A stretch of 61,529 nucleotides of DNA from a virus (IMGVR_UViG_3300025632_000015:1-61529), one strand, 5' to 3'. Shown: positions 3,787 through 44,344, numbered from the stretch's first letter. Notes: generated by a model not told the origin, from the sequence alone. Translations and numbers: made by a program.

Positions 3787-5804
3787 ACAAAATGAATTTT
3801 ATAAGAAACAATGGTGAAGTGGTAGAAGTTAATGACAAAGATGTCAAAACTTTAGAAAAGACTCAAACGTACACACTCTTTGGAGCTAAACATAATCCAA
3901 GCGGTGAACAAATGGTAGGCGTAGTATATAGTAACGACGTGGCAAAAGCAGAAGCCGAATATGCAGACAACGATTCAGGGCAACCAGAATATAACGAAAT
4001 ATTGGCAAATCCTAAGAAGACGTCTAAAATAACATGGCGAAACCTTAGATTACAGAGCGCAATATCAGGAGAGAAAGCAATTAAGGGACTAATTAGTACT
4101 ACTGCTGGTCTTTTTACAAAAGCAGCCAGAAAAGCAGGAAGCAGTATCGCAGCAGGCGGAATTACAAATGAAATGTCTGTAAGAGAAGATCCATTGTTAT
4201 TCATTGCAACTGCGGAAGATTGGTATGCATATATTAAGAATATGAACACAGTCGATATAGGCGCAGAATTTGCTGCCGGTGTGTCACACGCACAACGTTC
4301 TTCTAATGCATTATTCGCACACGAATGGGAGAGTGACCCAGGTCATCACAATCTTATGGGAAGATTACTTCCGGGTTCAGATAGCCAAGAAGCAGTTGCA
4401 AAAGGGCAGATTGCTTATGATATTCTAACACGAGGCAGAGAATTACTTAAACAACAAGGATACGGTGCTACACAACAACAAGTGATGCATAAACTTGTTT
4501 TCGACATACTGCGCTCTATGCCAGTAAAACAGTACAACTATTACACATTATACCAACTTCACCCAGATGAAGGTAATGAAATATACGCTGAATTCAAAAG
4601 CAGATACATTCCTTTAGAGACAGCAGAAGTAGAAATGGTATTAGAAATGCAAAGATCACTAGCATCAGAAGGTGACGCATACGCATTCAGAACTACAACT
4701 AACGAACAAACAGGACTACTCTCTTCACAACTAATGCGAAGAGTAGTTGCAGACTACGAAGTTGGTGATACTGTAAACGTTCGAACATTACTAATGACAT
4801 TACAAGGCCCACCATATAATTACAGAGCAAGAGCAGTTGACATAGCAATGGCATCAGGTCAAAGTAGCGCAGCAGTAGCTAGCGGTACAACGTTTATGGA
4901 GTTCAATCTACAAAACAGAGAGATAATGACTGACATGATTAATAATGGTAGTGGTAAGAAACTAAGCAACGAGAAGGTTGGCGCTTATGCTCTTGGCATT
5001 GAATCAACTCACTTGGATAAAGGCAATGAGTTGAAAATTAGTAAAGACCGCATCGCCGACTATCCTACAATAGTAATTGCAGCAAGTCAGTATGACCCAA
5101 CACCACTGTATGTTGCTGTAGCAGTTTCCGGTGGTAAAGGTGGCAGCAACAAAAACCAACAAGGTAAAAAGAAAGGTGGTGGCGGCAAGTGGAAGATAAT
5201 CAAGTACAACGAAGATTATCTAAAACTTGGTAAAAACGACAATGCTGGTAAAAAAGCACAAGGAATCAGAAGAGGACTTGGTAAGAAAAACCCTACCAAG
5301 AAAGCAAAGAAAAATCCACAACCAACAAAGCGTGGTAACTTTCACTTTGTTCAACTATGGCCAACTACACAATTAGATATTAAGAAAAGAGAACCAGTTG
5401 GAGGAATGGCAGGTGGTACTAGACATGGCACAGGCAAGTCAAAGAAGGGCCAAGGATATTGGACCAGAGGTCTAAACAAAGCAACCAAAGATATGCAAAA
5501 CAAACAACTACTGATGATGGGAACACACAAGAAAACAGGTGAAGAAGCACCTTACAGAATTAAATTCCCAGTCTCTTTGTTCAAAATTGTTAACCATCCA
5601 ACAGCAGGGTACAAAACACTAATGCCCAAGAAAGATATACAAAATAAGAAATTCATCGCAGCATACCAAGATTTCATAAATCATTATGGATTACCAAAAC
5701 ATGCACCTTCGAAAGATACGTATAATCGATTTATTATACCGAAGTCAGAAAGAGCGAAAAGTCCTTACTACATAGATATGCGTAAAAAAAGCGGTAGAAA
5801 GTGA
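3783..5804 (+). CDS. Hypothetical protein with Lys-rich C-terminal region and NP motifs
   Basis: 673-aa ORF in an overlapping gene run. AGGTGA precedes an alternative ATG at 3792. Contains AKHNP, GKKNP and AKKNP. Confidence 0.75.
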   Translation: MNKMNFIRNNGEVVEVNDKDVKTLEKTQTYTLFGAKHNPSGEQMVGVVYSNDVAKAEAEYADNDSGQPEYNEILANPKKTSKITWRNLRLQSAISGEKAIKGLISTTAGLFTKAARKAGSSIAAGGITNEMSVREDPLLFIATAEDWYAYIKNMNTVDIGAEFAAGVSHAQRSSNALFAHEWESDPGHHNLMGRLLPGSDSQEAVAKGQIAYDILTRGRELLKQQGYGATQQQVMHKLVFDILRSMPVKQYNYYTLYQLHPDEGNEIYAEFKSRYIPLETAEVEMVLEMQRSLASEGDAYAFRTTTNEQTGLLSSQLMRRVVADYEVGDTVNVRTLLMTLQGPPYNYRARAVDIAMASGQSSAAVASGTTFMEFNLQNREIMTDMINNGSGKKLSNEKVGAYALGIESTHLDKGNELKISKDRIADYPTIVIAASQYDPTPLYVAVAVSGGKGGSNKNQQGKKKGGGGKWKIIKYNEDYLKLGKNDNAGKKAQGIRRGLGKKNPTKKAKKNPQPTKRGNFHFVQLWPTTQLDIKKREPVGGMAGGTRHGTGKSKKGQGYWTRGLNKATKDMQNKQLLMMGTHKKTGEEAPYRIKFPVSLFKIVNHPTAGYKTLMPKKDIQNKKFIAAYQDFINHYGLPKHAPSKDTYNRFIIPKSERAKSPYYIDMRKKSGRK

Positions 5805-8002
5805 TTAAAATGAGAGTAAAGGTACCAAGAGAATTGGCTGGTGGCTCTCTACTTAAAGCACACCAGTGGGTTAAGTCTAATGTAGCCAAAACAAATCCAG
5901 GTAGAGCAAGTAATGATTACACGCTTCAAGCAGTTGATGGTACACCAATCAGTCTTAGTGATTTAACAAGTAGAACATTTGACGAAGTTCTAGTAGTATC
6001 AGGAACAAAAAACAACCCAGGTCAGTACCCGGTTCCAGAAGAATCATGGGGATATCCAACATATAAATCTAAAAACAGATTAGGTAACAAAGTGACTACA
6101 CTGTTAGCAAAAGATATTGATCCATCAATGATAGAAAGAATAGCCGCGCAAAATGGTATGTTCAGTGCACTCAATACTGTGACAAAATTATTGTATACTT
6201 CAAAAAACAACCTGAGGGGTACGGATACTAAAGTCGCTGCACTGCTACAAACATATGCTAACGCATCTGCAGTCAAAAATAATCCAGGAAGACCGTTCTT
6301 TGCAACAGATATAAACAACAAATTTAGAGGAGTTGTATCACCACAAGAAGCAACACGCTCATTTATTGCACAAGAATTTGGGGTAGACCCGTCTGATGGC
6401 GTATTCGATGCAAATAGTGAAGCAAGTACGTACCTAATAGACAAAGCAAGAATTATTAGAATGTATGATTTGGCTAACCCAGACACAATTGAAGATTTTA
6501 TGGATAACGTTTTGTTCCCGTTCCTAGCGATATCAACAGCAAACGCAAAGATGTTGAAAGCAATGAAGCACCAAGATTACAATGACATGACTAGGGATGC
6601 GCTCACAAGAGGCAGAAAAGACAGTGATAGTTTTGATATCAGATGGCAGAAACTAATTTCTATGGTACCAACAAAAGCAGAACAATTCTATGATGGAATG
6701 GATTATGCTTTAGTCGCACATCCTTTGTTCATGAGTGACAGTCTTGGTATAGCAGCAATGAATAGAAATCTTATAAGATACATTGCTAATACAGTTAGAG
6801 ATTATCCAGGTAACGCAAACCGCGCAGTTAGTTCAATACAAAGAAGAGAATTTGCTACACCGTTACAAAAATTCTTGAACATGTTCAGACCAGAAGACGG
6901 CGCCCTGTATGAGATGATGCAAGGCCAAACCGATATATTACGAGCCGGAACCACAGCAGAAGAAACACTAGCAGCATTGCAGTCTATCTATAACCCCGAA
7001 ACAATAGATATTGATATAGCCAAATATACCGCAAATCTGGAGACTGATCGGTTAGTTGGATTCTTTAGAGACGTCGCTGGTTTCAAACCCACCCCACCAC
7101 CATATTGGCCCAAACCAGTTGTATTAGCAATGATGGACGCACTTAGAAATAACATAAACGCAGTCATTATTAATGAACAATTGAACTTCGGCGGAACATT
7201 TATGTCGCATCTAACCAGAGGCAAGCTTCCTGCACAATACTGGTGGCTACAATCGATACAAATTCAATTAGCAAGCCCAGAAACGCTGCCCAAAGCAAAA
7301 AATGAGGTATTAGAGGGGATAAAATATCATAAGAGAAGTACTAAGTTTGGTAAAGTAATGGAAGAACTCTATCCAACTATAGAAGGACAAACCTATGCTG
7401 ACCAACTTAGTAGGACACCGGGAAATCCGTATGATATCTCAGCGAAGAAATTTTCCGAAATCGCAAACAAACTCAGTGATTACATAGACAGAATAAAACA
7501 AGATGGAAAAGGTTCCCTGAGTGACACCGTAAGTCCAACAATACATATACTAAGTGTATTTATGGAAATAGAAGATACTAGTAGAAGTAAGTATAACTAT
7601 ACTATGAGTGAAAACGATAGAGCATTTACACTATATATGCTACAAGAAGTATTTAACTATATAGACCGCAATACACCCGGCAGCTTAGGAGAACTAAGAC
7701 AATCATCAACCCCTGCAGATAACGCTAATATATTGAATATACTACAAGGATATACGGACACCGTCCCTACGGTAAACAACAAAGAACTAACAAATAGAAT
7801 AGAGTTTGAAACAGGAGTACAAGAAATATGGTATCAAGTCCAAGCACTATTAGTTGGATCTGATCCAGGCAATGTTGCGGTCGTCCAAAAAGATGCAAAA
7901 GACGAGTTGCTAGAATATAGGAACGGATTACCAGAGGAATGGCGTCGAATTAGAATAGACACTCTAATAGACACAATAAATGATTGGAGACCAGCCCCAT
8001 GA
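5801..8002 (+). CDS. Hypothetical protein with three N-terminal NP motifs
   Basis: 733-aa ORF overlapping the previous stop. Contains AKTNPG, TKNNPG and VKNNPG. Confidence 0.75.
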   Translation: MIKMRVKVPRELAGGSLLKAHQWVKSNVAKTNPGRASNDYTLQAVDGTPISLSDLTSRTFDEVLVVSGTKNNPGQYPVPEESWGYPTYKSKNRLGNKVTTLLAKDIDPSMIERIAAQNGMFSALNTVTKLLYTSKNNLRGTDTKVAALLQTYANASAVKNNPGRPFFATDINNKFRGVVSPQEATRSFIAQEFGVDPSDGVFDANSEASTYLIDKARIIRMYDLANPDTIEDFMDNVLFPFLAISTANAKMLKAMKHQDYNDMTRDALTRGRKDSDSFDIRWQKLISMVPTKAEQFYDGMDYALVAHPLFMSDSLGIAAMNRNLIRYIANTVRDYPGNANRAVSSIQRREFATPLQKFLNMFRPEDGALYEMMQGQTDILRAGTTAEETLAALQSIYNPETIDIDIAKYTANLETDRLVGFFRDVAGFKPTPPPYWPKPVVLAMMDALRNNINAVIINEQLNFGGTFMSHLTRGKLPAQYWWLQSIQIQLASPETLPKAKNEVLEGIKYHKRSTKFGKVMEELYPTIEGQTYADQLSRTPGNPYDISAKKFSEIANKLSDYIDRIKQDGKGSLSDTVSPTIHILSVFMEIEDTSRSKYNYTMSENDRAFTLYMLQEVFNYIDRNTPGSLGELRQSSTPADNANILNILQGYTDTVPTVNNKELTNRIEFETGVQEIWYQVQALLVGSDPGNVAVVQKDAKDELLEYRNGLPEEWRRIRIDTLIDTINDWRPAP

Positions 8003-9084
8003 GTAATTTATCTGATAAAATAGCCGCTCTTAAAAAGCGGGACCAAGAACTCTACGCTGACGGAAAAAAAGACCCATTCGGGCCAGCAACTTATATCAAC
8101 GAAGAGATACAGGCTATTGCCGACAAGGCAGCAACAATTACAGTAAGATACGACGGGATGGATGTAATATCCGACATGCTAGATAAACACACTCACAAAA
8201 CACTAGAATTACTAGATGAAGGAAGTAGAGCAATACAAGCCCATGCAAATGACGTAGTAAGTCATTTCGACGCATTCATTAGAGAAGGCCCAATTACGAT
8301 AAAATACGATAAAGGCGATGGTAAGGCAAAAAAAGAAGCAGAAGAAAAATATGCTCAAGAAAGTCAGAAATACCTCAGTCACATTCACCACATTGTCATG
8401 GATGTTGCAAGATTCGGAGAAGTCAAAAGTTCACTAAGCGGTGCCGAAAACCTACTAAGGATGCAAACAAACTTAGTCGATAAAGACGAAGTATTTACTA
8501 GAAGTGGACATAACGCAACAATATTAAATTTAATCAAATTCATCAAACAAATGGAAGAAGATCTAAACAAAGCAAAACAAGAAAGAGACGGATTAATAAT
8601 CGAACTAAGACAATTCCTGGGCAGAAAACCTTCAGAAGTACCAACAAACAAGGGTTTAGACAAAAATAAATTAGGACCGTTTGTTACAAGATACAAGGCA
8701 TTTGACCCATTATTCTTTGAAATGGCAATTTCATACATCACTTATACAATGGCAATATATAAGTTAGAAGTCAACGCCAGAAAGGTAACTATGGAAATAA
8801 CCAAAATCAAAAATCTACAGTGGTTCCAATCAAGATCTACTCGTCCTATAGCATCAGTATCAACACAGAACCAAATAGATAATATGTTGGCTGACATTGA
8901 TTTTACAAATGCTTCTCTTAATAAATCTTTCAAAAAACTAAGTTCGACAGCAAATAACTTTTTGGAAAAATATGACGTACCAGACTCGATAAAGAACCTT
9001 CCAGCCACGGGTAAGACTAGTAGTGAAGCCATAGATAATGCTGCTGAAGACCTAGTAACCGCACTAAAAAATTCCGTACTTTAA
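7999..9084 (+). CDS. Alpha-helical/coiled-coil hypothetical protein
   Basis: ATG at 7999 overlaps the previous stop (ATGA). Sequence is charged and heptad-like. Confidence 0.7.
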   Translation: MSNLSDKIAALKKRDQELYADGKKDPFGPATYINEEIQAIADKAATITVRYDGMDVISDMLDKHTHKTLELLDEGSRAIQAHANDVVSHFDAFIREGPITIKYDKGDGKAKKEAEEKYAQESQKYLSHIHHIVMDVARFGEVKSSLSGAENLLRMQTNLVDKDEVFTRSGHNATILNLIKFIKQMEEDLNKAKQERDGLIIELRQFLGRKPSEVPTNKGLDKNKLGPFVTRYKAFDPLFFEMAISYITYTMAIYKLEVNARKVTMEITKIKNLQWFQSRSTRPIASVSTQNQIDNMLADIDFTNASLNKSFKKLSSTANNFLEKYDVPDSIKNLPATGKTSSEAIDNAAEDLVTALKNSVL

Positions 9085-9115
9085 TCACTACCTGTATAAG
9101 TAGCGACCCTCTCCG

Positions 9116-10537
9116 ATGAGTATGATTAGCGCAGTCTATTGTAATGATTGCGGTGATAGAAACGATTCTAGTCACATGCATTGTAAAATGTGCGGAGCTA
9201 AATTACCGGTGATGGCACGACAAAATCCATTGTATGCAAAACTAACAGAAGACAGGCCAAAAGCGGTTGTTTTTGATTTAGACATGACATTATTTGACAA
9301 CTCACAAAGATTCACAGATGCAAGAAGAGCAGGACTTGTTGACAAAGCAGGAAAGCCAAAAGTCAAAGGGATGATGAGTAAAAAACAAGCGTTCAACAAA
9401 AGAAATAAATTCATTTACTCCAAAAAAGAACTTGCAAAAGACGTAGTGATTCCGGGCGCAACCCAGTTGGTTAGTGATTTGAAAAACGATGGCTACACCA
9501 TAATTTATCTTACTGCAAGACCAAACAAGTACCAAGAGCAAACAATCCAACAACTGGAAAATAAAGGCTTTCCATTGTTTAGAGACAGAGATGGTAACCC
9601 ATTAGTATTTTCTAAACCAGCAGATAAAACACAAGTTCCTGCGTTCAAAGGAAATAAAGTTAGAGAATTACTTGGTAATTACACAGTAGAAATGGTCTTT
9701 GATGACAACAAAAGCAATCTAGAAGAAATTTCTAAGTTAGGAATCCCAGGTCTGTATGCATCACTTTCAGATCATGTTAAGCACAATCCAGAAGCACACG
9801 ACTTCAGAGACGGACAGTTCGTAACAGGAACAGACAATGTCGATGTTGCATCTGATATGATGCGTGACCCAGATTTAGGTCCAGACGACAGAGAGCAAAC
9901 CGTAGGAGAAACAGCATATTTAGAAGAAGAACAAATGAAACAAATGAAACAAATGTCAATTGATGACTTCACATCAAACCCCATGGGACCAAACCCACTA
10001 CCAAATCCACTACCAAAACCAAAGAAAAAGAAACTTTCAAACGGTAAGTACCGCAAAGAACCAAAGAAAACTTACGTCAATAGAATGATGGAAACTAAGA
10101 AGATGAAAGAAGATTTCCCAGATAGGAAGCAAAGATATGCAGTTACTATGACATTGGTAACAAAGTTTTACGGTAAGTCTAAAGCAACACCCAAATCAAA
10201 TCCAGCACATCCAAGTAAAGTAGAGAAGGCTAAAAAACTTTACAAGCACATGAATGGTAAAGAACCAGCAAAGATCGAGAAAAAGAAACTTGACTTAGGT
10301 GATGTATGGTATCAAGTTGGTGAAGGAGGATGTTGGCAAATTGGTTACATATCTGGCAAAGATAACGGCAGAGATGACCAAAAGTACACTCATGTTTTCA
10401 ACGAAGAAACCAAAGACGGCAACTTCCCTAAGTTGTACGCAACAATGCCAGAAAACGGCAAACCAATGCTAATCATTACTGGCGGCACATGGAAGATTAA
10501 AACAGACGCCACTGGAACAGCATGGATATACGATTGA
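9116..10537 (+). CDS. Modular protein: Zn ribbon + HAD-family (PNK-type) phosphatase + small domains
   Basis: CxxC...CxxC at the N-terminus. HAD motifs FDLDMT, LTAR, K and VFDD are present. Modules are separated by ARQNP, VKHNP, TSNP/LPNP and PKSNP. Confidence 0.8.
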   Translation: MSMISAVYCNDCGDRNDSSHMHCKMCGAKLPVMARQNPLYAKLTEDRPKAVVFDLDMTLFDNSQRFTDARRAGLVDKAGKPKVKGMMSKKQAFNKRNKFIYSKKELAKDVVIPGATQLVSDLKNDGYTIIYLTARPNKYQEQTIQQLENKGFPLFRDRDGNPLVFSKPADKTQVPAFKGNKVRELLGNYTVEMVFDDNKSNLEEISKLGIPGLYASLSDHVKHNPEAHDFRDGQFVTGTDNVDVASDMMRDPDLGPDDREQTVGETAYLEEEQMKQMKQMSIDDFTSNPMGPNPLPNPLPKPKKKKLSNGKYRKEPKKTYVNRMMETKKMKEDFPDRKQRYAVTMTLVTKFYGKSKATPKSNPAHPSKVEKAKKLYKHMNGKEPAKIEKKKLDLGDVWYQVGEGGCWQIGYISGKDNGRDDQKYTHVFNEETKDGNFPKLYATMPENGKPMLIITGGTWKIKTDATGTAWIYD

Positions 10538-10546
10538 GGTGATTGA

Positions 10547-10849: not shown

Positions 10850-10853
10850 TACA

Positions 10854-11069
10854 ATGGCAGAAATATGGAACCCCTTCGATGACGGAAACCCCGTTTACAA
10901 AGAACTAGCAAAGAAAACCGCAATAAATAATAACACCTGGAAATGGATAGGAAGCATTGCAGTTGTGATGATTGTTGCTGATTACGCTGGCAAAAAAGGA
11001 TTCAGACTCAGTGGAGTGTCAGGATTAGGCAGGGTTAAGAACAATCCATATGGAATAATCCGCAAGTGA
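10854..11069 (+). CDS. Small membrane protein
   Basis: One TM segment. The C-terminus VSGLGRVKNNP contains both recurring motifs. Confidence 0.65.
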   Translation: MAEIWNPFDDGNPVYKELAKKTAINNNTWKWIGSIAVVMIVADYAGKKGFRLSGVSGLGRVKNNPYGIIRK

Positions 11070-11078
11070 GGCGGAGGT

Positions 11079-14000
11079 ATGAGTAAATATGCTTTTTCTG
11101 AATCGTTCGGTGAATTTACCGACAAAGATACAGAAGACGCAGTATTGACTAGATACAAAAAGCACGTCATTGACCATATACTTCAACACTATGAAATACA
11201 CGTCAATAGTCACAATCGTGACAATTTAACTTCACATCAGTTGCTATATTACCATGTTTACGGCGATTATCGTTTAGTATTAGACGACAAGAAACCTAAG
11301 TTTGTTTACAAAACAACAGGATATACAGAAACAAATATATTGTTGGGCGCACCGATAGATGAGTACTATCTAAACAATTTTCTAAATCAAGAAGAAGAAG
11401 GCATTATCAATGGCATATATGATTCTGTAAAAAATGATGGCGCATTAAAATACGACACGGAAAAAGTAGATTGGTTAAACACCGAACTACAAAAAAGAGG
11501 CACAGGAACTAAATTTAACTTACCAAGCATTGGTACAGAGATTGTAAAAATGCATGCTTACGGAAATGCTTCGGATGATATTAAAAAAGGCTTGATTGAC
11601 GAAATGTATGCATTAAGTGAGTTCTTAGACTCAGAAGATAACAGAAATGAGTATCCAGCATTATACGATGAAGACGCTATAGAATTAGTTAACAAATTTC
11701 TCGTAAATCCATTTATGGACTCAAGCGAGTTTAATGGAAGTGTATCAAAATCCATAGCCGTCTTAATAGAATCATTTTTGACAAATTTAGAGTATCGTGA
11801 ACTCTACGACTCATATCCAGACGAAAAAACCAATCCCCTACCACTAGAGAAAAATATTTTTAAAACTTTACGAGATATATATGACATAGACAACGATTAT
11901 GACACAGAAGGAGCCATTAGCAAAATAGTATCGACATTGTTTGCAAAGTCTACGCAGAAGTACAATATTGACGACGAAGTAATGTTTTCAGACAATCTTT
12001 CAAGTGCGAAACTAACCGCAATAGCAGATTTATTAGAAGTAGACCAAGAAGAGATAATGGCGTCCGAGTACGTCATAACCGGATTTAGTGAGACTGGTGG
12101 ATATGTTTTGCGTACAGTAGATTTAGTTGGTGGCGGACCTGTACCGCTAGATTTGAATGACTCACCAGATGACGTAAAAATTGCAGAAAACGATTTGATT
12201 AAATCAACTACACCGAAATTTGATTACGACGAAGATTCTGGTGACGTCACAACCACTGGTGGTAAGAAAAAAAAGAAAGGCGGTGGCAAAGTAGTATTAG
12301 AGCCAGCGTTAATTATTTATCAAAGGATTCTACTCGATACGTTTTCTGCCATACAAATATTGTGTCACACCAATGAATGGGCAAGACAGGGTGGCAACAA
12401 TGCAGAGGCTAAAACCGAAGCAAAAATGCGATTTCTTTCCAGCGGAGTTAACGTATATGCTTCGACACAAAACAACAACCAAAATAAACAGAAAGGAAAT
12501 AACAACAAAAAAGGCAAAATAAAACCAATTCATATTTACGATTCATTCCCCAACATAGCACATTTTGACAGCGGAAGTGTAGTTGGAATACCACCAAATA
12601 AAGACAGTAAAGCAAAATTAGGAAATCGGGGTTTGTTAGATGAATTGGCAGATTGGAGAGGGTTCTACACACTCTCAGTGCTAGCCAAAGCAAGAAAGAA
12701 ATCATACGACAGACAGTCTATGGACACTTTTTACTCATCCGATATTTTACTAAAAGAAATCGCTTGGATGGCGACTGCGTTAAGTGACGGCTCAAAAGTA
12801 CTTTCTAAGAAAGAAGACCCAAGAGACTTAATGTCACAAATTCAATATACATACGTTCGAGGAGTGCCAACAGATAAGGACGGTAACGACTTACTGCAAC
12901 AAACAGCCGTTGCACCAAAGGAAACTGTTTTCTACGAAGTTGACGTACCTTTGTTGAAAGAAGTAATAATGACTTACACAGATGTTTACAATAAATCTGT
13001 TATATATCGTGCGTTCAATACAGCAAAGAACACAAAGGACAAAACCATAACCGTCGAAACTGACAACGTAAAGACATTGGTTGCAAATGCATTTGAGGAA
13101 CATAAAAAAGCCAAAAAAGCAGAGGATGAAGGAAAACCAGATGCAGAAATAAAAGCATTCAAAGATAAAAAAAGCGAATACCTAGGCCAAGCAATGAGGC
13201 AACAGCCCAATGCATTTAGAGTAGATCAACCGAAAGGAAAGTCGGGTCGCGACGAAGACAGTTATCCTGGCATAAAGTATCTGCCGAAAGGTGAGGGAGG
13301 CAAATTCCACGTTGATGTTACACAGATACCTAGTAACGTTACTGGTGCAGATAAAATACCAAAAGACCGGAACAAAAAATCACGTACAGCAGGTCCCGCA
13401 GATGCTGGCGAATCAATATACGACACAACCACAATAACAACTAGAGCCCCTGTGAAAGAAGCCGATCTTGCAAGAACAATATGGCAGTCTGTCAAAACAA
13501 GAACAACAGGACTGTTTGACTTAGAAGGTGCAAGACCTCACGAATTTATGTATCTGTTATTCGAGGAGATGAACAAAGTTCTCTCAAGGTCTAAGTTAAT
13601 CAAAGCACCATACCCTGAAGCATGGTTTGGTACAAACATTGTTGACAAGTTAATTACCGACCCTATGCAATTAGGAGAGAGCGTTGAGATAAGATTTTAC
13701 GAAGAAAAACTAGCAGAATACATTGGTGCATTAGAAAAAAGATACATGAGCAATTTTTTAATTCCATCAGTTTTATTGACACAAACACAAATGGGTCGTA
13801 TCAAATATAGCAAAAACCCAGAGAAACTAAAGATGGCGTTTATGGAAAGACTCGCAAAAGACTCAGCAAGCCCACAATTAGTAACGACTAATTATATTCT
13901 CAAACCATATGCAATAACAGTGGCCATCATGCGCGGTGTTTTACAAATACCCGAAAAAGACAGATCGTCTTTTGTCGCACAAGAAATAGATGAAGATATG

Positions 14001-14105
14001 CGCACGGAGATACGCAGACATATGTATAACAATGACATTAGACCACTGCTTCCTAGAGAACACCCATTGTTTGAACCAAGAGAGAAAATAGAGGAGGAGG
14101 AATAA
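11079..14105 (+). CDS. Large hypothetical protein
   Basis: 1008-aa ORF with a GGAGGT SD. Acidic N-terminal half and Lys/Gly/Asn low-complexity linkers. No family recognised. Confidence 0.75.
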   Translation: MSKYAFSESFGEFTDKDTEDAVLTRYKKHVIDHILQHYEIHVNSHNRDNLTSHQLLYYHVYGDYRLVLDDKKPKFVYKTTGYTETNILLGAPIDEYYLNNFLNQEEEGIINGIYDSVKNDGALKYDTEKVDWLNTELQKRGTGTKFNLPSIGTEIVKMHAYGNASDDIKKGLIDEMYALSEFLDSEDNRNEYPALYDEDAIELVNKFLVNPFMDSSEFNGSVSKSIAVLIESFLTNLEYRELYDSYPDEKTNPLPLEKNIFKTLRDIYDIDNDYDTEGAISKIVSTLFAKSTQKYNIDDEVMFSDNLSSAKLTAIADLLEVDQEEIMASEYVITGFSETGGYVLRTVDLVGGGPVPLDLNDSPDDVKIAENDLIKSTTPKFDYDEDSGDVTTTGGKKKKKGGGKVVLEPALIIYQRILLDTFSAIQILCHTNEWARQGGNNAEAKTEAKMRFLSSGVNVYASTQNNNQNKQKGNNNKKGKIKPIHIYDSFPNIAHFDSGSVVGIPPNKDSKAKLGNRGLLDELADWRGFYTLSVLAKARKKSYDRQSMDTFYSSDILLKEIAWMATALSDGSKVLSKKEDPRDLMSQIQYTYVRGVPTDKDGNDLLQQTAVAPKETVFYEVDVPLLKEVIMTYTDVYNKSVIYRAFNTAKNTKDKTITVETDNVKTLVANAFEEHKKAKKAEDEGKPDAEIKAFKDKKSEYLGQAMRQQPNAFRVDQPKGKSGRDEDSYPGIKYLPKGEGGKFHVDVTQIPSNVTGADKIPKDRNKKSRTAGPADAGESIYDTTTITTRAPVKEADLARTIWQSVKTRTTGLFDLEGARPHEFMYLLFEEMNKVLSRSKLIKAPYPEAWFGTNIVDKLITDPMQLGESVEIRFYEEKLAEYIGALEKRYMSNFLIPSVLLTQTQMGRIKYSKNPEKLKMAFMERLAKDSASPQLVTTNYILKPYAITVAIMRGVLQIPEKDRSSFVAQEIDEDMRTEIRRHMYNNDIRPLLPREHPLFEPREKIEEEE

Positions 14106-21200: not shown

Positions 21201-23411
21201 TGTTGGATGCACAATTTCAAATGTCATTCTGCTAGAACTTGTTACACTTGGGCAGCAGGTGGGCCAATAACAGAGGATTCTGTTTCTTACGATTGGCAAG
21301 AAAGGTCAGCAAAATCCAACCCTCAAAAAAAAATTTCAATTAGAATAGATGAAAGCACAAACCCAGAAAAGAAAATGATGGCTGTATTTACCAAACCAAA
21401 TGGTAGAACAAAGACCATTCACTTCGGTGCTCGCGGCATGAGTGATTATACTCAACACAAAGATAAATCACGCAGAAAGAACTACCTTGCACGTCACGGT
21501 GGAATGGGAGAAGATTGGAATGACCCAATGACAGCAGGTGCATTGTCAAGATGGATTCTATGGGGCAAGCCGAGTCTAAGGGAATCGTTTAACGACTTCA
21601 AGAAGAGATTCAACTTGGAAGGAGTTATGGCTGTCACGAACACAAAGATGAATCCTTCATACACAACCAAGTTCGACTTTGTTCCAGGCAAGGAATATAC
21701 TTTTGATGAACTACCAGGACATGAAACAGGAAGAATGGTAACTGCACTAGAAGAAGAATATGGGCCACTTGGAACTTCCCTAAGAGAAGATGCACTTCAT
21801 CACTTTAGAAGCAAAGGAATGGAAGGTGGATATGGTTTTCCCGGAACTGCACAAGAGGCAATTTACAAAGCAGTAATTATTCCCAACGAAGAGTTAGTGG
21901 AACGATTTGGACACTTACAAGGAAAGCCAAAACTACAGAAGCATATCGAAAAGTATGGATTAGATTACCCTAGTATTGGTAACGAAGGAAACAATAGAAG
22001 AATTGCTATGGCTAAACTTGGAAGAGATATGCCGCATTTAGAAGTCGTCCCAGCAAAGATGAACCCAAGAATCCCAAAGAAGTACGAAGGACAAGATCCA
22101 AGCGAACATTCAGACCTTTACACCGATGAAGATCCAGAAGGAACAATTCAAGGCTTGGGGTTTAAAGACAAAGCAACAGCAACGAAATCAATTCGATTGA
22201 TTAAGAACTCAGGAAAAACTCACGCACATAAGATACAAGCAGCAATGGCTATGGAACAAAGAGCAAGATTCCACCCTAATGCAACAAAAGGAATCAAAGA
22301 GGCACAGAAAGTTTACAAGCAATTTATTGAAGAAATGAAAGTGAAAACAAAAGAAATGAAAGTAAAACTAAAAGTGAACCCAATGGCTCCCGGCTATCAA
22401 TCATATTCATGGACTACAGAAGACTGGCGTTCAATTAAAGTAAACAACAAAGGAGAAATAGATTACAAAGAAAAGTGTGGGGCAGAAGGAACACAAACAC
22501 CAGATGGTTCTCCTAGACTTTGTTTACCTGTGGAAGTCATTAGGTCTTTGTTAAGAACTGAATCAGGAAAAGATGTTATTCGTACACAAGCAAGGAAAAA
22601 AGCCCGTGCTAAGAAAGGTGAGAGAGTTCCTTGGCATCCAAGGATTAAGAAAATTTGGAAACGTGTAAAGGAACAAAGTCCCAAAGACAAGAAAAATCCA
22701 AATCCATATTACAATGCACATCTTTATGCAAGTGGTAGTACAGACCCATTTTTCCCAGGAGACGTACCTGTGGCTCCACCAGCCTTGTTAAAGAATCCAC
22801 CAAGTAAAGTAATTATTGTAAGTGGCCCATCTGGTTCTGGAAAATCAACCATATCTAAAACAATAGCAAAAGAACTTGGCGGCACACTTGTACCAACTGT
22901 GACAACAAGATCCAGAAGACCAAAAGAAAAAGAAGGAGGAGACAGAATCTTTGTTTCTAAAGATGAATTCAAAGAAATGATAGATAACAATGAGTTTGTT
23001 GAATACAAGCAACACAAAGATGGAGTCTTTTACGGCAGAAGAAAAACAGACATGGATGACATATCAATTGTAGAAGTTAGCCTAAAAGGAATGAAAGAGT
23101 ACAAAGAACTTTATCCAGATTCATTTGCAGTATTCTTAGAGCCAGATAAGTCTCCGAAAGAGATAGAAAAAAGATTATTGTTAAGAGGCGGTATGTCAGA
23201 AGCAAATGCAAAAGCTAGAGCAAGTATAATTCCTAAACAAGTTGCAGCAGCAAAAACAATGCCTTATGATTTATTTATCAAATCAAGAACAGGTAAGTAT
23301 TCAGAAGTAGCAAAAGAAATAATTAGTCAAATACCAATGGCTAATCCACATTGGCGACATGGTGAAGCGATGGACGAAGAAGACGATCCGTTTGCAGACC
23401 AATTTAACTAA
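18225..23411 (+). CDS. 1728-aa multi-module polyprotein-like protein (JAB/MPN domain, two guanylate kinase-like domains, several small domains)
   Basis: JAMM motif E...HTHP...S..D. C-terminal GPSGSGKST/TTRSRRPKEKEG/FVEY/FYG guanylate kinase signature, with a degenerate second copy mid-protein. About 13 xxNP motifs occur at module joins. Confidence 0.8.
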   Translation: MNQMMKTTTSHDIATLLNFPEIGQILSGNKVTDTDVKYKDGVFRYRITLPKGVRRSDIPNILRDFYNIGIFTLNSEDHIVENHDYQTRTTRNNVVVIGSMQITPVSLTNPVLKKMTALEDFNNEYDKMVMTAPETYFKAFPYRGFNGPTFRAKLFSFVSNMGENYGYCDDKTIYHRRASLVMPKIKITKAPEQAKMFYHTHPKRDEPSLSSADDYLIYFDMSHKPRNIRHFYTVMADRMDYFHIVPKPSKKKDYVKINEDKFIAELDNQIDEAASRLDQVMSSDSYGDDLQYCEKVTREVVKWLNNKYKKYFTITYKCHYRVKNNPDKPTGNDLHLDDEFIGKALKDLKTGAASWPEFREKDKPQENYAYWHSKYFTMNKDAKGVGYMGLLPGDTRRFNHFIYANYRGSEYTYEDILGILCISNDIKIRDAKIRDGKGITSRIEDILDYLEIHNEEIREDIMLYDSIVAVDAYGSMAEIVGEEHNFILPIADFSMQSVEAMKLVRGGKKNLERAKYDIMVTLKEKMGKAVADALGKRNKQLVDTGTPVSINAYHPWNDPTDTRNTYPGDSIKSSTLGINPPVQRKKREFGMVLPKNVFDNQELLLEVLEPFKKPDKDLRNERTNQYNIVVPGDNSAVNFTFYDTGTVQIFVPAKGYPMPENPDEAVLVAVRTLIETINDMGLAKPIETDDIAFGTIEPIRNPNTGVIVALVGPIQPTKNKILDSLSKRMNASVVTTFTTKILKAYERRPNIVEVTDEIFTKMENGGEIVVATQTYDGYKRGFSRKDMQKGDFMMIDAEVSDLHFLINAKPSVISFFLHPTNSEATIEGYMSKYVSPQEAKRVSRSIEPSQDQVEHIIEYDIERPASAIEEIYNTIPKPNPMPKSIGSMMVSSNGEYYLRVKNNPSHNSCPAVTQNLELNTKNRNSAIKADYIKYGPLNLADEDYWVKAAEHWNTTPEVAKESKCGNCVAFDISPRMLDCMPGSVQDDGQLGMCWMHNFKCHSARTCYTWAAGGPITEDSVSYDWQERSAKSNPQKKISIRIDESTNPEKKMMAVFTKPNGRTKTIHFGARGMSDYTQHKDKSRRKNYLARHGGMGEDWNDPMTAGALSRWILWGKPSLRESFNDFKKRFNLEGVMAVTNTKMNPSYTTKFDFVPGKEYTFDELPGHETGRMVTALEEEYGPLGTSLREDALHHFRSKGMEGGYGFPGTAQEAIYKAVIIPNEELVERFGHLQGKPKLQKHIEKYGLDYPSIGNEGNNRRIAMAKLGRDMPHLEVVPAKMNPRIPKKYEGQDPSEHSDLYTDEDPEGTIQGLGFKDKATATKSIRLIKNSGKTHAHKIQAAMAMEQRARFHPNATKGIKEAQKVYKQFIEEMKVKTKEMKVKLKVNPMAPGYQSYSWTTEDWRSIKVNNKGEIDYKEKCGAEGTQTPDGSPRLCLPVEVIRSLLRTESGKDVIRTQARKKARAKKGERVPWHPRIKKIWKRVKEQSPKDKKNPNPYYNAHLYASGSTDPFFPGDVPVAPPALLKNPPSKVIIVSGPSGSGKSTISKTIAKELGGTLVPTVTTRSRRPKEKEGGDRIFVSKDEFKEMIDNNEFVEYKQHKDGVFYGRRKTDMDDISIVEVSLKGMKEYKELYPDSFAVFLEPDKSPKEIEKRLLLRGGMSEANAKARASIIPKQVAAAKTMPYDLFIKSRTGKYSEVAKEIISQIPMANPHWRHGEAMDEEDDPFADQFN

Positions 23412-24200: not shown

Positions 24201-24737
24201 ATGGCCATTACGATTAGCGCACCCCACTTCAAAGAATCAGTAGATGACCCTAATATCAAACCATTTCTAGATCAACTAGAATCTTTTTTAGACCTTAAGA
24301 ATATTCCCCACTACATCGTCAAAGGAACTTCATTGAAAACAATGTTAGACTTAACAACATCAGAAGCAAGGGGCACTAGTTACAATCAAGAACTTGCAGC
24401 GTATCTAAAGATCAGTGACTTGCATCTTGAGTTGCATGCGTATGATTTTGATACACATGAAGATTGGTCTACATCAGATTTGGTTATTGGAAAGCTACTA
24501 GGTTATACAGATGAAGAGTTACTAGGAGATTTTGAAAATGTTTTGGGTTCTAGTGCAACGGTTGAGACAAACATGGTAGTACCAATGGGACACTATGCTA
24601 GTGCATTAAGTGAGTTTGTTTATCAGATACCTAGTATAGTATTATATGTTAATGTAGATAGTAGTCAACTATACCCTAGTATAACAGAAAGTATAACAGA
24701 TATTATTTTGGATTACGAGGAGCGTAAAACTTCATAG
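24201..24737 (+). CDS. Acidic hypothetical protein, possibly N-formylglutamate amidohydrolase/Zn-exopeptidase-like fold
   Basis: ISAPH near the N-terminus, followed by LHLELHAY and SDLVIG. The resemblance is weak. Confidence 0.45.
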   Translation: MAITISAPHFKESVDDPNIKPFLDQLESFLDLKNIPHYIVKGTSLKTMLDLTTSEARGTSYNQELAAYLKISDLHLELHAYDFDTHEDWSTSDLVIGKLLGYTDEELLGDFENVLGSSATVETNMVVPMGHYASALSEFVYQIPSIVLYVNVDSSQLYPSITESITDIILDYEERKTS

Positions 24738-24972: not shown

Positions 24973-25051
24973 AATCTATAGATGTATGACACGAACATAT
25001 AGTAATGCACGCCCCTTATATCCCCCCTCCCCGTCGGACAGGTTAGATCGC

Positions 25052-26089
25052 ATGCCTTTAGCTGAAGTAGTAATACTGAATCCGCGAAGACCCGCTGCAA
25101 AGCGTAAGACGTCTAAGAGGAAGAAAAGCGTACGATCGAAAAACAAAGGAATGAATAAAATGGCAAGAAGAAAATCTGTAAAAAGAGTAAAGTCAACCAG
25201 AAGGAAGACTACTACTCGTCGAAAACCGACTACACGTCGCCGTAAAGTAACCCGTAGAAAAGCTGCCCCTAAGAGGAAGACTACTACTCGTAGAAAAAAG
25301 ACTGCACGCAGAAAAGCTGCACCTAAGAGAAGAGTAGTAAGACGCCGAAAAGTGGCAAGGAAAGCTGCTCCTAAGAGACGCAGAACTACACGTAGAAAAG
25401 CTGCTCCTAAGAGACGCAGAACTACACGTAGAAAAGCTGCTCCTAAGAGAAAGGCTACTACACGAAGGCGTATAGTAAAAAGACGTGCTGCACCTAAGAG
25501 AAGAAAAACTACTCGAAGGAAAACTGCACGTAGGAAGACTACAAGAAGAAAGAGCACATCTCGTGTTCGCCGAAGTCGCCGTTCATCAAAGATGAGCATC
25601 AAAGGATACACTTCATTCGTGAAGACCCACTTAGACCTAAAGGCTCTGGGTGTTGTTGTCCTTGGATTGTCTCTACCTTCGATGGCAGGGTATCTCGCAT
25701 CAACAAATGTTGGTATGAGAGCAATGTCCTACGTGGACATGGTACCTGGTATGACAACAAACGTTGGAAAAGCAGCTCTTGCTGTTGGTCTAACCGCTGC
25801 AGTATCATACGGAATGTCTGGCTTAGGAGTCATTAGTGCTAGTGAAGCATTAACAGCAAACATGATCGCATTAGGTCTTGTAACTGTTGGCGCATTACAA
25901 TCTATGAATCTACCTGTAGGTAGTGGAATAGTTTCTAATCTACCAAGTTCTGGCGGTCTCGCTGGTCTAGGTAGTGCTTCATATGGATACATCGGTAACT
26001 ACCACGACACTGGTATGGGTGTAGGAGCAGAAATGCTTCCTCAACCACAAGGTGCTCAGTTATTCGGCGTCCGTGCTAATATATTCTGA
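25052..26089 (+). CDS. Protamine/histone H1-like Arg-Lys-rich protein fused to a multi-pass membrane domain (putative virion core protein)
   Basis: About 170 aa of RRKAAPKRRRTT-type repeats follow VILNP, then 3 hydrophobic segments and LAGLG. A CTTATA box lies about 30-35 nt before ATG 25052. Confidence 0.8.
   Translation: MPLAEVVILNPRRPAAKRKTSKRKKSVRSKNKGMNKMARRKSVKRVKSTRRKTTTRRKPTTRRRKVTRRKAAPKRKTTTRRKKTARRKAAPKRRVVRRRKVARKAAPKRRRTTRRKAAPKRRRTTRRKAAPKRKATTRRRIVKRRAAPKRRKTTRRKTARRKTTRRKSTSRVRRSRRSSKMSIKGYTSFVKTHLDLKALGVVVLGLSLPSMAGYLASTNVGMRAMSYVDMVPGMTTNVGKAALAVGLTAAVSYGMSGLGVISASEALTANMIALGLVTVGALQSMNLPVGSGIVSNLPSSGGLAGLGSASYGYIGNYHDTGMGVGAEMLPQPQGAQLFGVRANIF
25250..25545 (+). repeat. Imperfect coding tandem repeat (36-39 nt unit, RRKAAPKRRRTT)
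   Basis: AAAGCTGCTCCTAAGAGACGCAGAACTACACGTAGA is repeated exactly around 25361-25432, with degenerate copies on both sides. Confidence 0.9.
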
Positions 26090-30996: not shown

Positions 30997-30998
30997 GT

Positions 30999-31403: not shown

Positions 31404-31413
31404 GGCTTAAGTA

Positions 31414-31794: not shown

Positions 31795-31803
31795 GGAATT
31801 ATA

Positions 31804-32070
31804 ATGAAGTTACAAAGAAAAATAAAAACGTTCTATAAAAGAAACACCATGTTATCTATAGGTTTAGTTGGCGCTGCGGCGTACATGTATCTACAGAGAC
31901 AAGGAATGATGACAAGCCTTGCACCAGTACCTGTCAAAGCAACGACAAGTAGCGCACCGGTAGCAAGATATGCATACGATGCATACCCTCCGATTAGGAA
32001 TGAACCATACACAAATGCTTCACACTTCTTCGGACCTGCTGACGGAGACCCCGTCTTCTACGGATTCTGA
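31804..32070 (+). CDS. Small membrane protein
   Basis: Basic N-terminus and one TM segment; GAGG SD. Confidence 0.7.
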   Translation: MKLQRKIKTFYKRNTMLSIGLVGAAAYMYLQRQGMMTSLAPVPVKATTSSAPVARYAYDAYPPIRNEPYTNASHFFGPADGDPVFYGF

Positions 32071-32080
32071 GGTTTTTAGA

Positions 32081-32422
32081 ATGTCAGGATGGTACGGATC
32101 TATGAATATGGGTGACTTAGGTCATCCCCACATGAGCGATGGAGATTTCTTTAGGGCTCACGACATGGCTCAAGAAGACCCAGGTGCTACAATCAACAAG
32201 CTTCACCCAATGCAATACGACAAGATGTCAGAAGCCGGTAAGAAAGCGGCAATGGGATTAGTTGTCGGTGCGATCGTCGGTGGAGTCCTTTTACAAGTTG
32301 GACCTTACAAGAAAATGATGACAAAGCAGAAGTCCTGGCAAGCTGCCGCAATAGGTGCGGCAGTAGCAGTTCCACTAATCGCTGTGTCCGGATCTTGGGC
32401 TCCTTCAAGGAAAGGAATGTGA
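32081..32422 (+). CDS. Small 2-TM membrane protein
   Basis: ATG at 32081 follows GAGGT. It starts MSGWYG (compare MSGWFG at 54439) and has two TM segments. Confidence 0.7.
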   Translation: MSGWYGSMNMGDLGHPHMSDGDFFRAHDMAQEDPGATINKLHPMQYDKMSEAGKKAAMGLVVGAIVGGVLLQVGPYKKMMTKQKSWQAAAIGAAVAVPLIAVSGSWAPSRKGM

Positions 32423-32426
32423 TTAA

Positions 32427-32669
32427 ATGAGCTATTTCGGAAACGGAATCGGAGAAATCACCGCACCAAAAGTAGCGGCTAGTACAGTAATAATTACTGG
32501 TGCAGTAGTTGCATTCGCTGTGGGCGGTGTAATGCAAGCATTAGCTGATGGTTATTTCTTAGGTCGAGCACAGAAGAAAGGTGTTACTTACAAAACTATA
32601 GCAAAGAGAAATGCTGTGCTAGGTGGCGCACTAGGTGCAGTAGCGGCTGCAGGAATTTTATCGGCGTGA
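32427..32669 (+). CDS. Small 2-TM membrane protein
   Basis: Two Ala/Gly/Val-rich hydrophobic segments. Confidence 0.7.
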   Translation: MSYFGNGIGEITAPKVAASTVIITGAVVAFAVGGVMQALADGYFLGRAQKKGVTYKTIAKRNAVLGGALGAVAAAGILSA

Positions 32670-32673
32670 TTAT

Positions 32674-32841
32674 ATGGGAATACAGAAAGACGCTAAAGGT
32701 GCTTGGAAAGATTCCAAAAAGTTTGCAAACAAACATCCAGTTGTATCTATATTAGTCGGTGGTGCAGTAGCATTCACAGCACTAAACATTTATTTTACTA
32801 GTTACATAATGACGAGCGCATTTGAGAAGGTGAATCAATAA
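32674..32841 (+). CDS. Small membrane protein (55 aa, not in ORF track)
   Basis: MGIQKDAKGAWKDSKKFANKHPVVSILVGGAVAF... fills the gap exactly, and its stop overlaps the next ATG. Confidence 0.65.
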   Translation: MGIQKDAKGAWKDSKKFANKHPVVSILVGGAVAFTALNIYFTSYIMTSAFEKVNQ

Positions 32842-33716
32842 TGGCTAGAAAGAAAGGGATTGTTTCTGGATTAAAAAAGTATGGTAATAACCACCCATAC
32901 GTCACGCTAGCACTTGCTGGAACTTTCGGATACTACTTCTATGATAGTATGAAGCGTGGTGTATCTATACTACCATCTTCTTCTTCTGCATCATACACAT
33001 CTTCCTCTACTCCTATGAGTGATGAGGCATTTGCATTAATGATGGATGATATAGCCAGAATAGACGGAGTTTACAGAGTAAGATATGGAGCAAACTTCTC
33101 TAGTCCAAGTGTCACTACCGATATGGATCAAAGAAGTGCACAGATAATTAAGGCCAATTTAGACGATGCACTCAACTCCAGAGCAGCAATGTCATCAGCA
33201 CAAGTAGCAAAGTTAGAGGCTCTAAATACATTAATGACCAACGCATATCCAGTTGACTCAAACGGATTCAGAAGAATAAATGGACTAGGTGCAACAACTT
33301 CAACTTCAACCACATCATCATCTTCACACAGGATGCCGGGACCAGGCGATGGCGAGACGTCTATGTATATCGACCCTACAAAATCAGGACTGTTCGGAAT
33401 GGGTGCCGCAAAGAATCCACCATCTCACTTGATGTTTGATAAAGCACAAGGTCTGGGTGCGTGTCACAACTGTGGCGCAAGAAGTAACCCACACTGTCAC
33501 TGTGGTGGTTCACATGGTGTGAATGGTTTCTCACCTTCTGCTCGTAGAAGAGTAGGTCATGCTGGAATTGGTATGGCATCAGAATCTTACGAGGCAACAT
33601 TAGACACACAGTTTGAAAACCGTGAAGCAATGATGATGGGCGACTTAAAGAAACACCAAGATATTCTCGGCTTCTCAGGGCTAGCACCCTTAGCAGGCGG
33701 AGACTGGTACGAATGA
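32841..33716 (+). CDS. Membrane-anchored protein with multiple xGLG motifs and a Cys/His cluster
   Basis: N-terminal TM. Contains INGLG, LFGMG and AQGLG, plus CHNC...HCHC. Confidence 0.7.
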   Translation: MARKKGIVSGLKKYGNNHPYVTLALAGTFGYYFYDSMKRGVSILPSSSSASYTSSSTPMSDEAFALMMDDIARIDGVYRVRYGANFSSPSVTTDMDQRSAQIIKANLDDALNSRAAMSSAQVAKLEALNTLMTNAYPVDSNGFRRINGLGATTSTSTTSSSSHRMPGPGDGETSMYIDPTKSGLFGMGAAKNPPSHLMFDKAQGLGACHNCGARSNPHCHCGGSHGVNGFSPSARRRVGHAGIGMASESYEATLDTQFENREAMMMGDLKKHQDILGFSGLAPLAGGDWYE

Positions 33717-44342: not shown

Positions 44343-44344
44343 AT

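Follow-up and report, generated by a model that had tools for sequence, protein, structure and literature searches.

A [K/R]-x-Asn-Pro motif at the module junctions of viral polyproteins: candidate maturation sites in a marine virus with a probably archaeal host

The viral record IMGVR_UViG_3300025632_000015 has been analysed here over its whole length of 61,529 bases, which is called the window throughout and corresponds to the entire IMG/VR record, with an estimated completeness of 44%. A block of eight open reading frames (ORFs; 6465 amino acids) on the plus strand, from position 3783 to position 23411 and just upstream of the gene for an FtsK/HerA-type P-loop ATPase, was found to encode proteins in which a short sequence, refined to the consensus [V/P/T/A]-[K/R]-x-N-P, recurs far above chance. 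The motif is restricted to this block, is conserved, lies in linkers and at junctions, and is the point at which modules have been exchanged. On balance, we lean towards the reading that the [K/R]xNP sites are proteolytic maturation sites of modular polyproteins, with a JAB-like module of the largest polyprotein as the first candidate for the enzyme. A first-pass annotation of the same DNA had described a genome-wide basic-x-Asn-Pro motif and had proposed for it either a protease site or a docking tag for loading cargo into the virion core.

The counts in the block were compared with those in 500 shuffles of the residues within each ORF. The Asn-Pro dipeptide (NP) is present 42 times, against 17.9±4.0 in the shuffled sequences, and this number was reached by 0 of the 500 shuffles. 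The same was found for [KR].NP (20 against 2.6, the dot standing for any residue), for K.NP (19 against 1.66) and for [AVILT]K.NP (14 against 0.47), each with 0/500 shuffles, while the reversed dipeptide PN, which served as a control, was counted 18 times with 18.0 in the shuffles (269/500 reaching it). Among all 8000 gapped 4-mers of the form a.bc, K.NP has the highest rank for the block (Poisson 1.9e-14), and NP likewise heads the 400 dipeptides. The distance between the basic residue and NP is fixed, since [KR]NP (6 against 2.4; 13/500 shuffles) and [KR]..NP (2 against 2.5; 368/500 shuffles) are little or not enriched. In the remaining 33 ORFs of the window (11,087 amino acids), K.NP was counted 0 times against 1.05, and NP 23 times against 19.0, a value reached by 103/500 shuffles, which confines the signal to one gene block and not to the genome.

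These numbers bear on several claims of the first-pass annotation. Its expectation of a count far above a shuffled null was confirmed for the block, and the sequence RVKNNP does occur verbatim three times. The genome-wide scope could not be upheld, the excess being limited to positions 3783 to 23411, and the proposed form [KR]x{0,2}NP proved too loose, because only the K/R-x spacing is clearly enriched. The motif had been listed for at least eight ORFs, and every instance named is present; the sites of ORF 24950 and of ORF 32841, which carries AKNP and ARSNP, lie outside the block, and their number does not exceed the random expectation.

Three related IMG/VR records, G001, G002 and G003, were found by profile search and fetched whole, the window being G000 in this comparison; the protein identity of these relatives is 24-57% in the syntenic block. 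With 200 shuffles for each, none of which reached any of the block counts, [KR].NP was found 20 times in the block against 2.4 in G000 (rest of the proteins: 3 against 2.3), 28 times against 2.8 in G001 (rest 7 against 8.0), 14 times against 3.1 in G002 (rest 8 against 6.6) and 15 times against 1.9 in G003 (rest 5 against 3.7). The top gapped 4-mers were identified as R.NP and K.NP in G001, L.NP in G002 and R.NP in G003; two positions ahead of Asn, most lineages thus have K or R, and one often has L. For ORF 18225, which encodes the largest polyprotein, 244 homologues of 950-3024 amino acids were found in ocean metagenomes, with contigs reaching about 140 kb. In the 120 that were retrieved, K.NP was counted 434 times against 50.9 expected, and NP was about twofold or more above expectation in 120/120. 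The corresponding values for [KR].NP were 210 against 19.6 in 71 homologues of ORF 5801 and 215 against 17.7 in those homologues of ORF 9116 with at least 400 amino acids (58 among the 150 matches listed), the counts across such families being non-independent events. A logo of 1667 NP sites gave V (21%), P (20%) and T (12%) at position P4, K or R (46%) at P3 and a preference for P or S at P2'. In the blocks of the four genomes, the residue following [VPTIA][KR].N is P in 58/100 cases, and the residue preceding P in that context is N in 58/112.

The sites keep their positions while the K/R and x residues vary. In two alignments of the ORF 18225 family, with 28 and 61 sequences and identities down to 29%, NP109, NP325, NP701 and NP879 were invariant or nearly so; NP579-580 was invariant in the smaller alignment, and in the larger one only P580 was listed. 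In the ORF 5801 family, three sites near amino acids 30, 70 and 160 are kept down to 30% identity, again with variable K/R and x. An AlphaFold model of residues 1-900 of ORF 18225, built from 61 sequences, had a mean predicted local distance difference test score (pLDDT) of 77.3, with 72 of the 900 residues below 50. The segments with pLDDT<50, at residues 110-113, 324-329, 580-584, 700-702 and 879-900, each coincide with an NP site, so that five of the six modelled NP sites fall into low-confidence linkers; the sixth (PENP, residue 661) lacks a basic residue and forms a helix cap. The mapping of the motif onto predicted domain boundaries, as suggested by the first-pass annotation, is in agreement with this model. 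Recognizable domains were likewise found to start right behind NP: the HAD domain at residue 42 after NP37, the guanylate kinase at residue 1528 after NP1524, the guanylate-kinase fold at about residues 703-878 after NP701, and a basic tract after VILNP.

NP sites were also identified near the ends of the proteins. In many block ORFs of all four genomes, NP is located 30-85 amino acids from the N-terminus or 6-40 amino acids from the C-terminus, and the tails are often acidic. NP sites are likewise present in the orthologues of ORF 3783 from these two relatives, G001 and G002, and the orthologues of ORF 14105 in G001, G002 and G003 have an NP 30-40 amino acids ahead of their acidic C-terminus. 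Of 121 proteins in the ORF 18225 family, 102 have their last NP at a distance of 18-30 amino acids from the end. At the end of ORF 18225 itself (23349-23411, about the last 20 amino acids) and in its homologues, a conserved acidic tail x-W-R-H-G…D-P-F…F follows the last NP, whichever module precedes it, and NP.W[RK]HG is present in 47/121 proteins of the family; from its sequence, this tail may be a targeting peptide. The polyproteins of the HAD family begin with a CxxC…CxxC zinc-ribbon-like peptide ending in the motif, as ARQNP in the window (9116-9226), TRKNP in G001 (120396) and PKSNP in G002 (89035-91524, minus strand).

Exchange of modules at the motif was revealed by the ends of local alignments, the high-scoring segment pairs (HSPs). 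For ORF 18225, HSP ends pile up at residues 880 (44 HSPs), 904, 1144 and 1708 (68 HSPs), and HSP starts at residues 1027-1034, 1272-1280, 1383-1385, 1490-1491 and 1513-1527; its C-terminal modules are bounded by NP at residues 879, 903, 1032, 1143, 1280, 1385, 1491, 1524 and 1707. When all members of the family were compared with one another, 6753 distinct internal HSP starts and 8288 ends were obtained; an NP is found no more than 6 amino acids away from 48% of these starts and 38% of these ends, with 9.8% for random positions. The values for the ORF 9116 family were 44.5% of the starts and 38.7% of the ends, with 12.7% at random. The module at residues 904-1032, between NP903 and NP1032, reappears with 64% identity directly after an NP in the HAD-family polyprotein of G003, and the module at residues 1281-1348 (68 amino acids, right after NP1280) was matched with 62% identity on an otherwise unrelated viral contig of 25 kb (L002 957-1163). 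Homologues of ORF 18225 with 1041-2720 amino acids vary in their C-terminal modules, for which GNAT, NUDIX, SET, nucleoside diphosphate kinase (NDK), Ham1, glutaredoxin, PF19141 and PF25176 have been identified.

As enzymes that might act on these sites, the first-pass annotation had named a JAB domain and the protein encoded by ORF 24201, and for both the present results favour the proposal in part. In the JAB-like module of ORF 18225, residues E163, H199, H201, S211 and D214 were kept in 60/60 aligning homologues, within HTHPKRDEPSLSSADD. Since a fold search with the model of 900 amino acids returned only the kinase domain, the module was modelled alone, which gave a pLDDT of 85.7 and a predicted template modelling score (pTM) of 0.84. 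Its top 50 fold matches in the PDB include many JAB/MPN proteins (CSN5, BRCC36, Rpn11, AMSH, Prp8-MPN and RadC). Among the predicted viral structures of BFVD, 22 matches with E<=1e-3 were obtained, mostly to unnamed viral proteins; names among the matches include 'deubiquitination hydrolase' (7.8e-4), 'metalloprotease' (9.8e-3) and RadC (1.3e-2). The neighbours of the module in BFVD are unnamed conserved proteins of large eukaryotic DNA viruses (iridoviruses, a phaeovirus, asfarvirus-like and pithovirus-like viruses) and 'minor capsid proteins' of phages. Based on the model, residues 111-325 can be assigned to the JAB fold weakly: the invariant residues and the JAB/MPN-rich fold matches speak for an enzyme of this kind, and the threshold for the family was not reached.

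The gene of the 24201 protein adjoins that of the ATPase in all four genomes, its version in G003 being a frame of 204 amino acids just downstream of the ATPase. The protein reached an Atlas score of 0.90-0.91 to clusters including the FGase and poly-gamma-glutamate hydrolase families, with 173 shared features. PH, DL and H-x-x-L-H blocks are conserved in three orthologues, with DLN and HIDLHS in two relatives, and a sequence search of the PDB with ORF 24201 was without a match. Here as well, the Atlas score and the conserved blocks lend the proposed enzyme some support, and the family threshold was missed.

In the reading we prefer, the block from 3783 to 23411 encodes modular polyproteins in which the signal [V/P/T/A]-[K/R]-x-N-P, with L for K/R in some lineages, occupies flexible linkers between modules and is also placed behind short N-terminal leaders and ahead of short, often acidic C-terminal tails. 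A virus-encoded enzyme would cut at or beside Asn-Pro, either after synthesis or within the assembling particle. The released products would be domain-sized, such as the guanylate kinase, its kinase-like paralogue and the HAD phosphatase, and in the relatives NUDIX, GNAT, SET, NDK, Ham1 and glutaredoxin modules; leaders and tails would be trimmed by the same cutting. The most likely enzyme would be the JAB/MPN-like module with its putative metal site (residues 111-325), flanked by two invariant sites, and the FGase-like 24201 protein would be the second candidate. Maturation is favoured because of the strict consensus, the many copies per protein, the positions at leaders, tails and linkers, and the restriction to a block beside the packaging ATPase. 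The processing proposed by the first-pass annotation is compatible with the shuffles, the linker positions and the module exchange, though not in its genome-wide extent. The cutting, the enzyme responsible, the bond that is cut and the status of the products as virion cargo are inferred.

A more specific proposal is possible, though doubtful: in a widespread but undescribed marine archaeal virus lineage of about 140 kb, whose particle contents would derive from self-processing polyproteins, a divergent JAB-like metalloenzyme embedded in the largest of these, or Asn chemistry aided by it, might cut [K/R]-x-Asn|Pro, thereby releasing swappable enzymes of nucleotide metabolism and protein modification and trimming leaders and tails that target cargo. 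To our knowledge, cutting at [K/R]-x-Asn|Pro is not known for any protease family. If this proposal were true, the motif would be the first maturation site code of an archaeal virus and would double as a joint at which recombination exchanges modules. Should the sites be cut at all, the motif would provide a map of the mature proteins for this virus lineage, a new protease specificity centred on Asn-Pro would be defined, and JAB-like domains would be tied to polyprotein processing. A fixed junction signal would then let the viruses swap enzyme modules while the processing is kept.

Several observations weigh against processing or against the candidate enzymes. The JAB-like spacing in HTHPKRDEPSLSSADD is longer than that of the canonical JAB motif, HxH-x7-S-x2-D. 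The model of the module gave 0 matches with E<=1e-3 in the PDB, the best E being 0.013 with a template modelling (TM) score below 0.3; no Pfam JAB family matched the block ORFs at E<=0.01, and Prok-JAB (PF14464) gave none in the four genomes at E<=10. For ORF 24201, FGase (PF05013/PF05908) stayed below the threshold, with no Pfam match in three orthologues and 11.7 bits in G003 only. Legumain (C13), S78 (HK97-type prohead) and C48 (Ulp1-type) proteases were not found in the four genomes. The motif is not depleted in the proteins outside the blocks of the four genomes, and K.NP is wholly absent from 5/120 homologues of ORF 18225. Most endopeptidases cut X-Pro bonds poorly, which leaves the scissile bond uncertain; the 'Pro-initiated mature proteins' of the first-pass annotation presuppose a cut between Asn and Pro, a bond that the sequence cannot place. 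Gene position alone points to a possible association of the block with the virion. The exchange of modules at NP among relatives, which had also been predicted, holds for the ORF 18225 and ORF 9116 families and fails for the ORF 5801 family, where the breakpoints avoid NP (1.1% of the starts and 0.2% of the ends, with about 7% at random); the sites of this family are conserved N-terminal positions and not recombination joints. No clean gene split at NP was identified among 36 shorter homologues, 10 of which were inspected, most being truncated or at a contig end. One homologue of 907 amino acids ends 6 residues past the site equivalent to NP879.

The alternatives differ in what they make of the same features. 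That the motif has no function, its excess resulting from composition, a DNA-level motif or duplicated copies, is very hard to maintain, since shuffles that keep the composition never reach the counts. It is true that two RVKNNP sites of ORF 18225 resemble each other somewhat in their flanks, and that homologues do not contribute independent counts. Most sites, however, have unrelated flanks, and non-homologous ORFs as well as junctions between non-homologous modules carry the motif. Of the occurrences of the nucleotide sequence AAYCC, 42 are in the coding frame, and the two remaining frames have 4 and 6; both Asn codons are in use. This places the constraint on the protein. A DNA-level motif was rejected on account of this frame-specificity with free synonymous codons, and so was ribosome skipping of the 2A type, because the NPGP core occurs in only 14/2643 NP sites from 352 proteins. 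Inherited repeats and composition were ruled out by the shuffles in the window and in the relatives and by the first rank of K.NP among the 8000 gapped 4-mers. A functional motif that is never cut is an unlikely explanation of better standing: the capsid, the ATPase or the thermosome might read it for docking or packaging, or it might form a structural joint with a Pro-started cap that tolerates module swaps. Its limitation to a gene block beside the packaging ATPase, its placement in linkers, the fact that it is not avoided elsewhere in the genome and the indirect nature of the evidence for cleavage would all suit such a signal. A loading tag would be needed once per protein, however, and up to 16 NP are present in one; the sites at 6-40 amino acids from both termini and between nearly every module form a pattern expected of leaders, tails and released domains, and a purely structural joint would not need K or R two residues upstream.

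Cleavage without a protease, in which a succinimide would arise through attack of the Asn side chain on the carbonyl of the same residue, breaking the N-P bond, is considered rather improbable. It would account for the strict coupling of N and P, and is in line with the failure to find the canonical protease families searched for in the four genomes; uncatalysed Asn-Pro cleavage is slow, which counts against it. The upstream residues, a conserved K/R at P3 with V, P or T at P4, resemble the recognition site of a separate enzyme, five of the six modelled sites are located in low-confidence linkers with up to 16 NP in a protein, and no Pfam match to Asn lyase families was obtained for the block ORFs. 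Cutting after Asn as such is established for viral capsid proteins and for FlhB/YscU, where the site is Asn|Pro-Thr-His (PMC3207474); in the part of that source drawn upon here, the known Asn lyases cut once, within a folded domain that supplies the catalytic partner.

Several known systems can be compared with the proposed proteolytic maturation. The maturation proteases of adenovirus cut at (M/I/L)XGX-G, those of African swine fever virus at GG-X in pp220 and pp62, and those of poxviruses at AG-X; among phages, the sites are (L/I)xE for T4 gp21 and (S/A/G)xE for phages of the phiKZ type. Like these codes, the motif is a consensus of 3-5 residues with many copies in internal or core proteins, placed at the borders of leaders, tails and domains. 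The genes concerned are neighbours of packaging and capsid genes, and the short leader of an arginine-rich core protein ends in the motif. In the window, and again in three relatives, a definite group of proteins contains the short consensus in numbers well beyond the random expectation, and its sites are found in accessible segments at such borders, with the exception of the breakpoints of the ORF 5801 family. Unlike them, the consensus is [K/R]-x-N-P, the cysteine and serine maturation proteases searched for were not found, the candidate enzyme is a JAB-like module with a putative metal site inside the substrate, and the host is probably archaeal. The modules here are swapped metabolic and modifying enzymes, and cutting is a proposal made from sequence. 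Unusual are the consensus, the candidate enzyme and the host domain; the kind of process, virion or polyprotein processing at a linear motif, is known.

Members of the JAB/MPN+ (JAMM) proteases, such as Rpn11, CSN5, AMSH, BRCC36 and the prokaryotic JAB proteins, are the source of the best PDB fold matches of the module at residues 111-325; this module carries an invariant E…H-x-H…S…D-D set on a strand-loop-helix element that resembles theirs. It differs from them in giving no match to a hidden Markov model and in fold scores below significance. Known members cut after the Gly-Gly tails of ubiquitin-like proteins and not at K-x-N-P.

The polyvalent proteins described by Iyer et al. 2017 (PMC5512222) are very large proteins of mobile elements, namely phages and conjugative elements, with many enzymatic domains, rapidly shuffled and encoded beside virion genes. 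In the section of this source considered here, an embedded peptidase, the zincin-like MPTase, was proposed to release domains, while JAB of the RadC type was seen as directed at nucleic acids. The block proteins resemble them in that many catalytic domains were found in one viral polypeptide with shuffled architectures, the relatives having guanylate kinase, NUDIX, GNAT, SET, NDK, Ham1 and glutaredoxin modules in different combinations; they differ in having a sharp junction motif, with no junction consensus given in that section, and in a domain set centred on nucleotide metabolism. The asparagine peptide lyases (MEROPS N1-N11), as far as covered in the same part of PMC3207474 as above, comprise FlhB/YscU with N|PTH and the coat proteins of nodaviruses, tetraviruses, picornaviruses and reoviruses. 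With Asn at P1 and Pro at P1', the present sites are like FlhB/YscU, and the viral lyases act in particle maturation. However, many linker sites with an upstream basic residue are present here, and the lyases have a single site inside a folded self-cleaving domain. Such a location was not found in the present case, five of six sites lying in low-confidence linkers, with no such Pfam family in the block ORFs.

The features of the window are collected in Table 1. Its genes are located nearly all on the plus strand, and a Pfam or PHROG family was assigned to few of the proteins, most being without one; in ORF 18225, a DUF5754 domain was also identified.

Table 1. Positions of the block ORFs, their domains and further features of the window (aa, amino acids)
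Feature	Position	Strand	Size	Details
ORF 3783	3783..5804	+	673 aa	GAKHNP at aa 38, KKNP at aa 503 and 511; short N-terminal peptide ending with NP38
ORF 5801	5801..8002	+	733 aa	N-terminal AKTNP at aa 32, TKNNP at aa 72, VKNNP at aa 161
ORF 7984	7984..9084	+	366 aa	No NP
ORF 9116	9116..10537	+	473 aa	Zinc-ribbon-like N-terminus, ARQNP at aa 37, HAD phosphatase, VKHNP at aa 224, NP-rich linker at aa 288-297, PKSNP at aa 362, conserved C-terminal domain
HAD phosphatase domain of ORF 9116	9239-9748			aa 42-211; Pfam match
ORF 10854	10854..11069	+	~71 aa	Membrane-like; C-terminal GLGRVKNNP-YGIIRK
ORF 11079	11079..14105	+	1008 aa	EKTNP at aa 252, YSKNP at aa 913; acidic C-terminus
ORF 14105	14105..18259	+	1384 aa	6 NP including LPNP at aa 849, IKQNP at aa 1034, AKTNP at aa 1271; acidic C-terminal tail
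ORF 18225	18225..23411	+	1728 aa	Largest polyprotein; 16 NP; conserved core aa 1-880, swappable C-terminal modules
Putative JAB/MPN-like module	18555..19199	+		aa 111-325 of ORF 18225, between invariant NP109 and NP325
Guanylate-kinase-fold paralogue	20331..20858	+		aa 703-878 of ORF 18225, between NP701 and NP879; Foldseek against PDB guanylate kinases, E 1.8e-8
Guanylate kinase domain	22806..23282	+		aa 1528-1686 of ORF 18225, between NP1524 and NP1707; Pfam
FtsK/HerA-type P-loop ATPase	23456-24160	+		In each of the four genomes, the motif block extends downstream as far as this gene
ORF 24201	24201..24737	+	178 aa	FGase/PghP-like candidate (zinc amidohydrolase)
VILNP junction	25070..25084	+		VILNP at aa 44 of the 379-aa protein of ORF 24950-26089, at the boundary of leader and arginine-lysine-rich tract
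Three tandem Laminin_G_3 (LamG-like) proteins	43459-45774			Fibre-like proteins also identified in the window
Thermosome	48444-49997			NF041082, 498 bits

The ATPase is likely to be the genome-packaging enzyme. A sequence search of the PDB gave only HerA and RecA matches at the level of the P-loop, and no named relative was found among deposited phage and archaeal-virus genomes. The order of polyprotein block, ATPase, 24201-like gene, capsid-region genes and thermosome is common to the relatives, with protein identities of 23-77%. G001 is a complete relative of 140,336 bases with direct terminal repeats, coding for a family B DNA polymerase (PolB), MCM and the small primase subunit (PriS). An archaeal host is likely because of the thermosome in the window and of MCM, PriS and PolB in this relative, and the virus is an uncultivated marine virus of about 140 kb, probably with an archaeal host. 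The families PF04451, PF05065 and PF03237, searched for HK97 capsid, capsid of nucleocytoplasmic large DNA viruses and terminase, gave no match in the four genomes.

The lineage is common in ocean metagenomes and is undescribed as far as the literature was searched. No description of the virus group, of its polyproteins or of the [K/R]-x-N-P junction was found in the full-text literature, the coverage of which is incomplete, so that absence in print is not proven. We know of no cultured member of this lineage. A search for close relatives by exact peptide patterns turned up only the shared module of 68 amino acids on the unrelated contig. Magroviruses (PMC11706807) are tailed viruses with thermosomes and LamG-like proteins, and their architecture, in the excerpt of that source used here, is different from that of the present virus. 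LamG-like and thermosome genes are common to both; tailed-virus hallmark genes were not found in the window virus.

In the capsid region, ORF 26575-27189 encodes the most conserved protein, with 77% identity to G001 and 76% to G002 against 23-57% for its neighbours and without an assigned family; by its conservation, it is a candidate capsid component. ORF 29395, like ORF 28389 a putative capsid gene, had no match in a sequence search of the PDB. For ORF 28389, the best Atlas score was 0.82, to an unnamed viral cluster, and the sole named row was the VP17 barrel cluster with 0.81, which is below a meaningful level. The protein of ORF 24950-26089 consists of a short leader, about 170 amino acids of RRK/AAPKRR repeats and a Gly/Ala-rich hydrophobic C-terminal part, and from its sequence it looks like a membrane-anchored DNA-condensing core protein. 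At the junction equivalent to VILNP, G001 keeps VIIVNP; the counterpart in G001 (139963-140336) runs into the genome end.

Together with GLG in membrane proteins, the Asn-Pro motif had been thought to form a maturation code of two signals. GLG was counted 18 times in the window against 9.6±2.9, a modest excess, and 5 times in ORF 55-2481 against 0.41 expected. In the small membrane proteins encoded by the genes at 30999-34108, several GLG follow N, S or Q.

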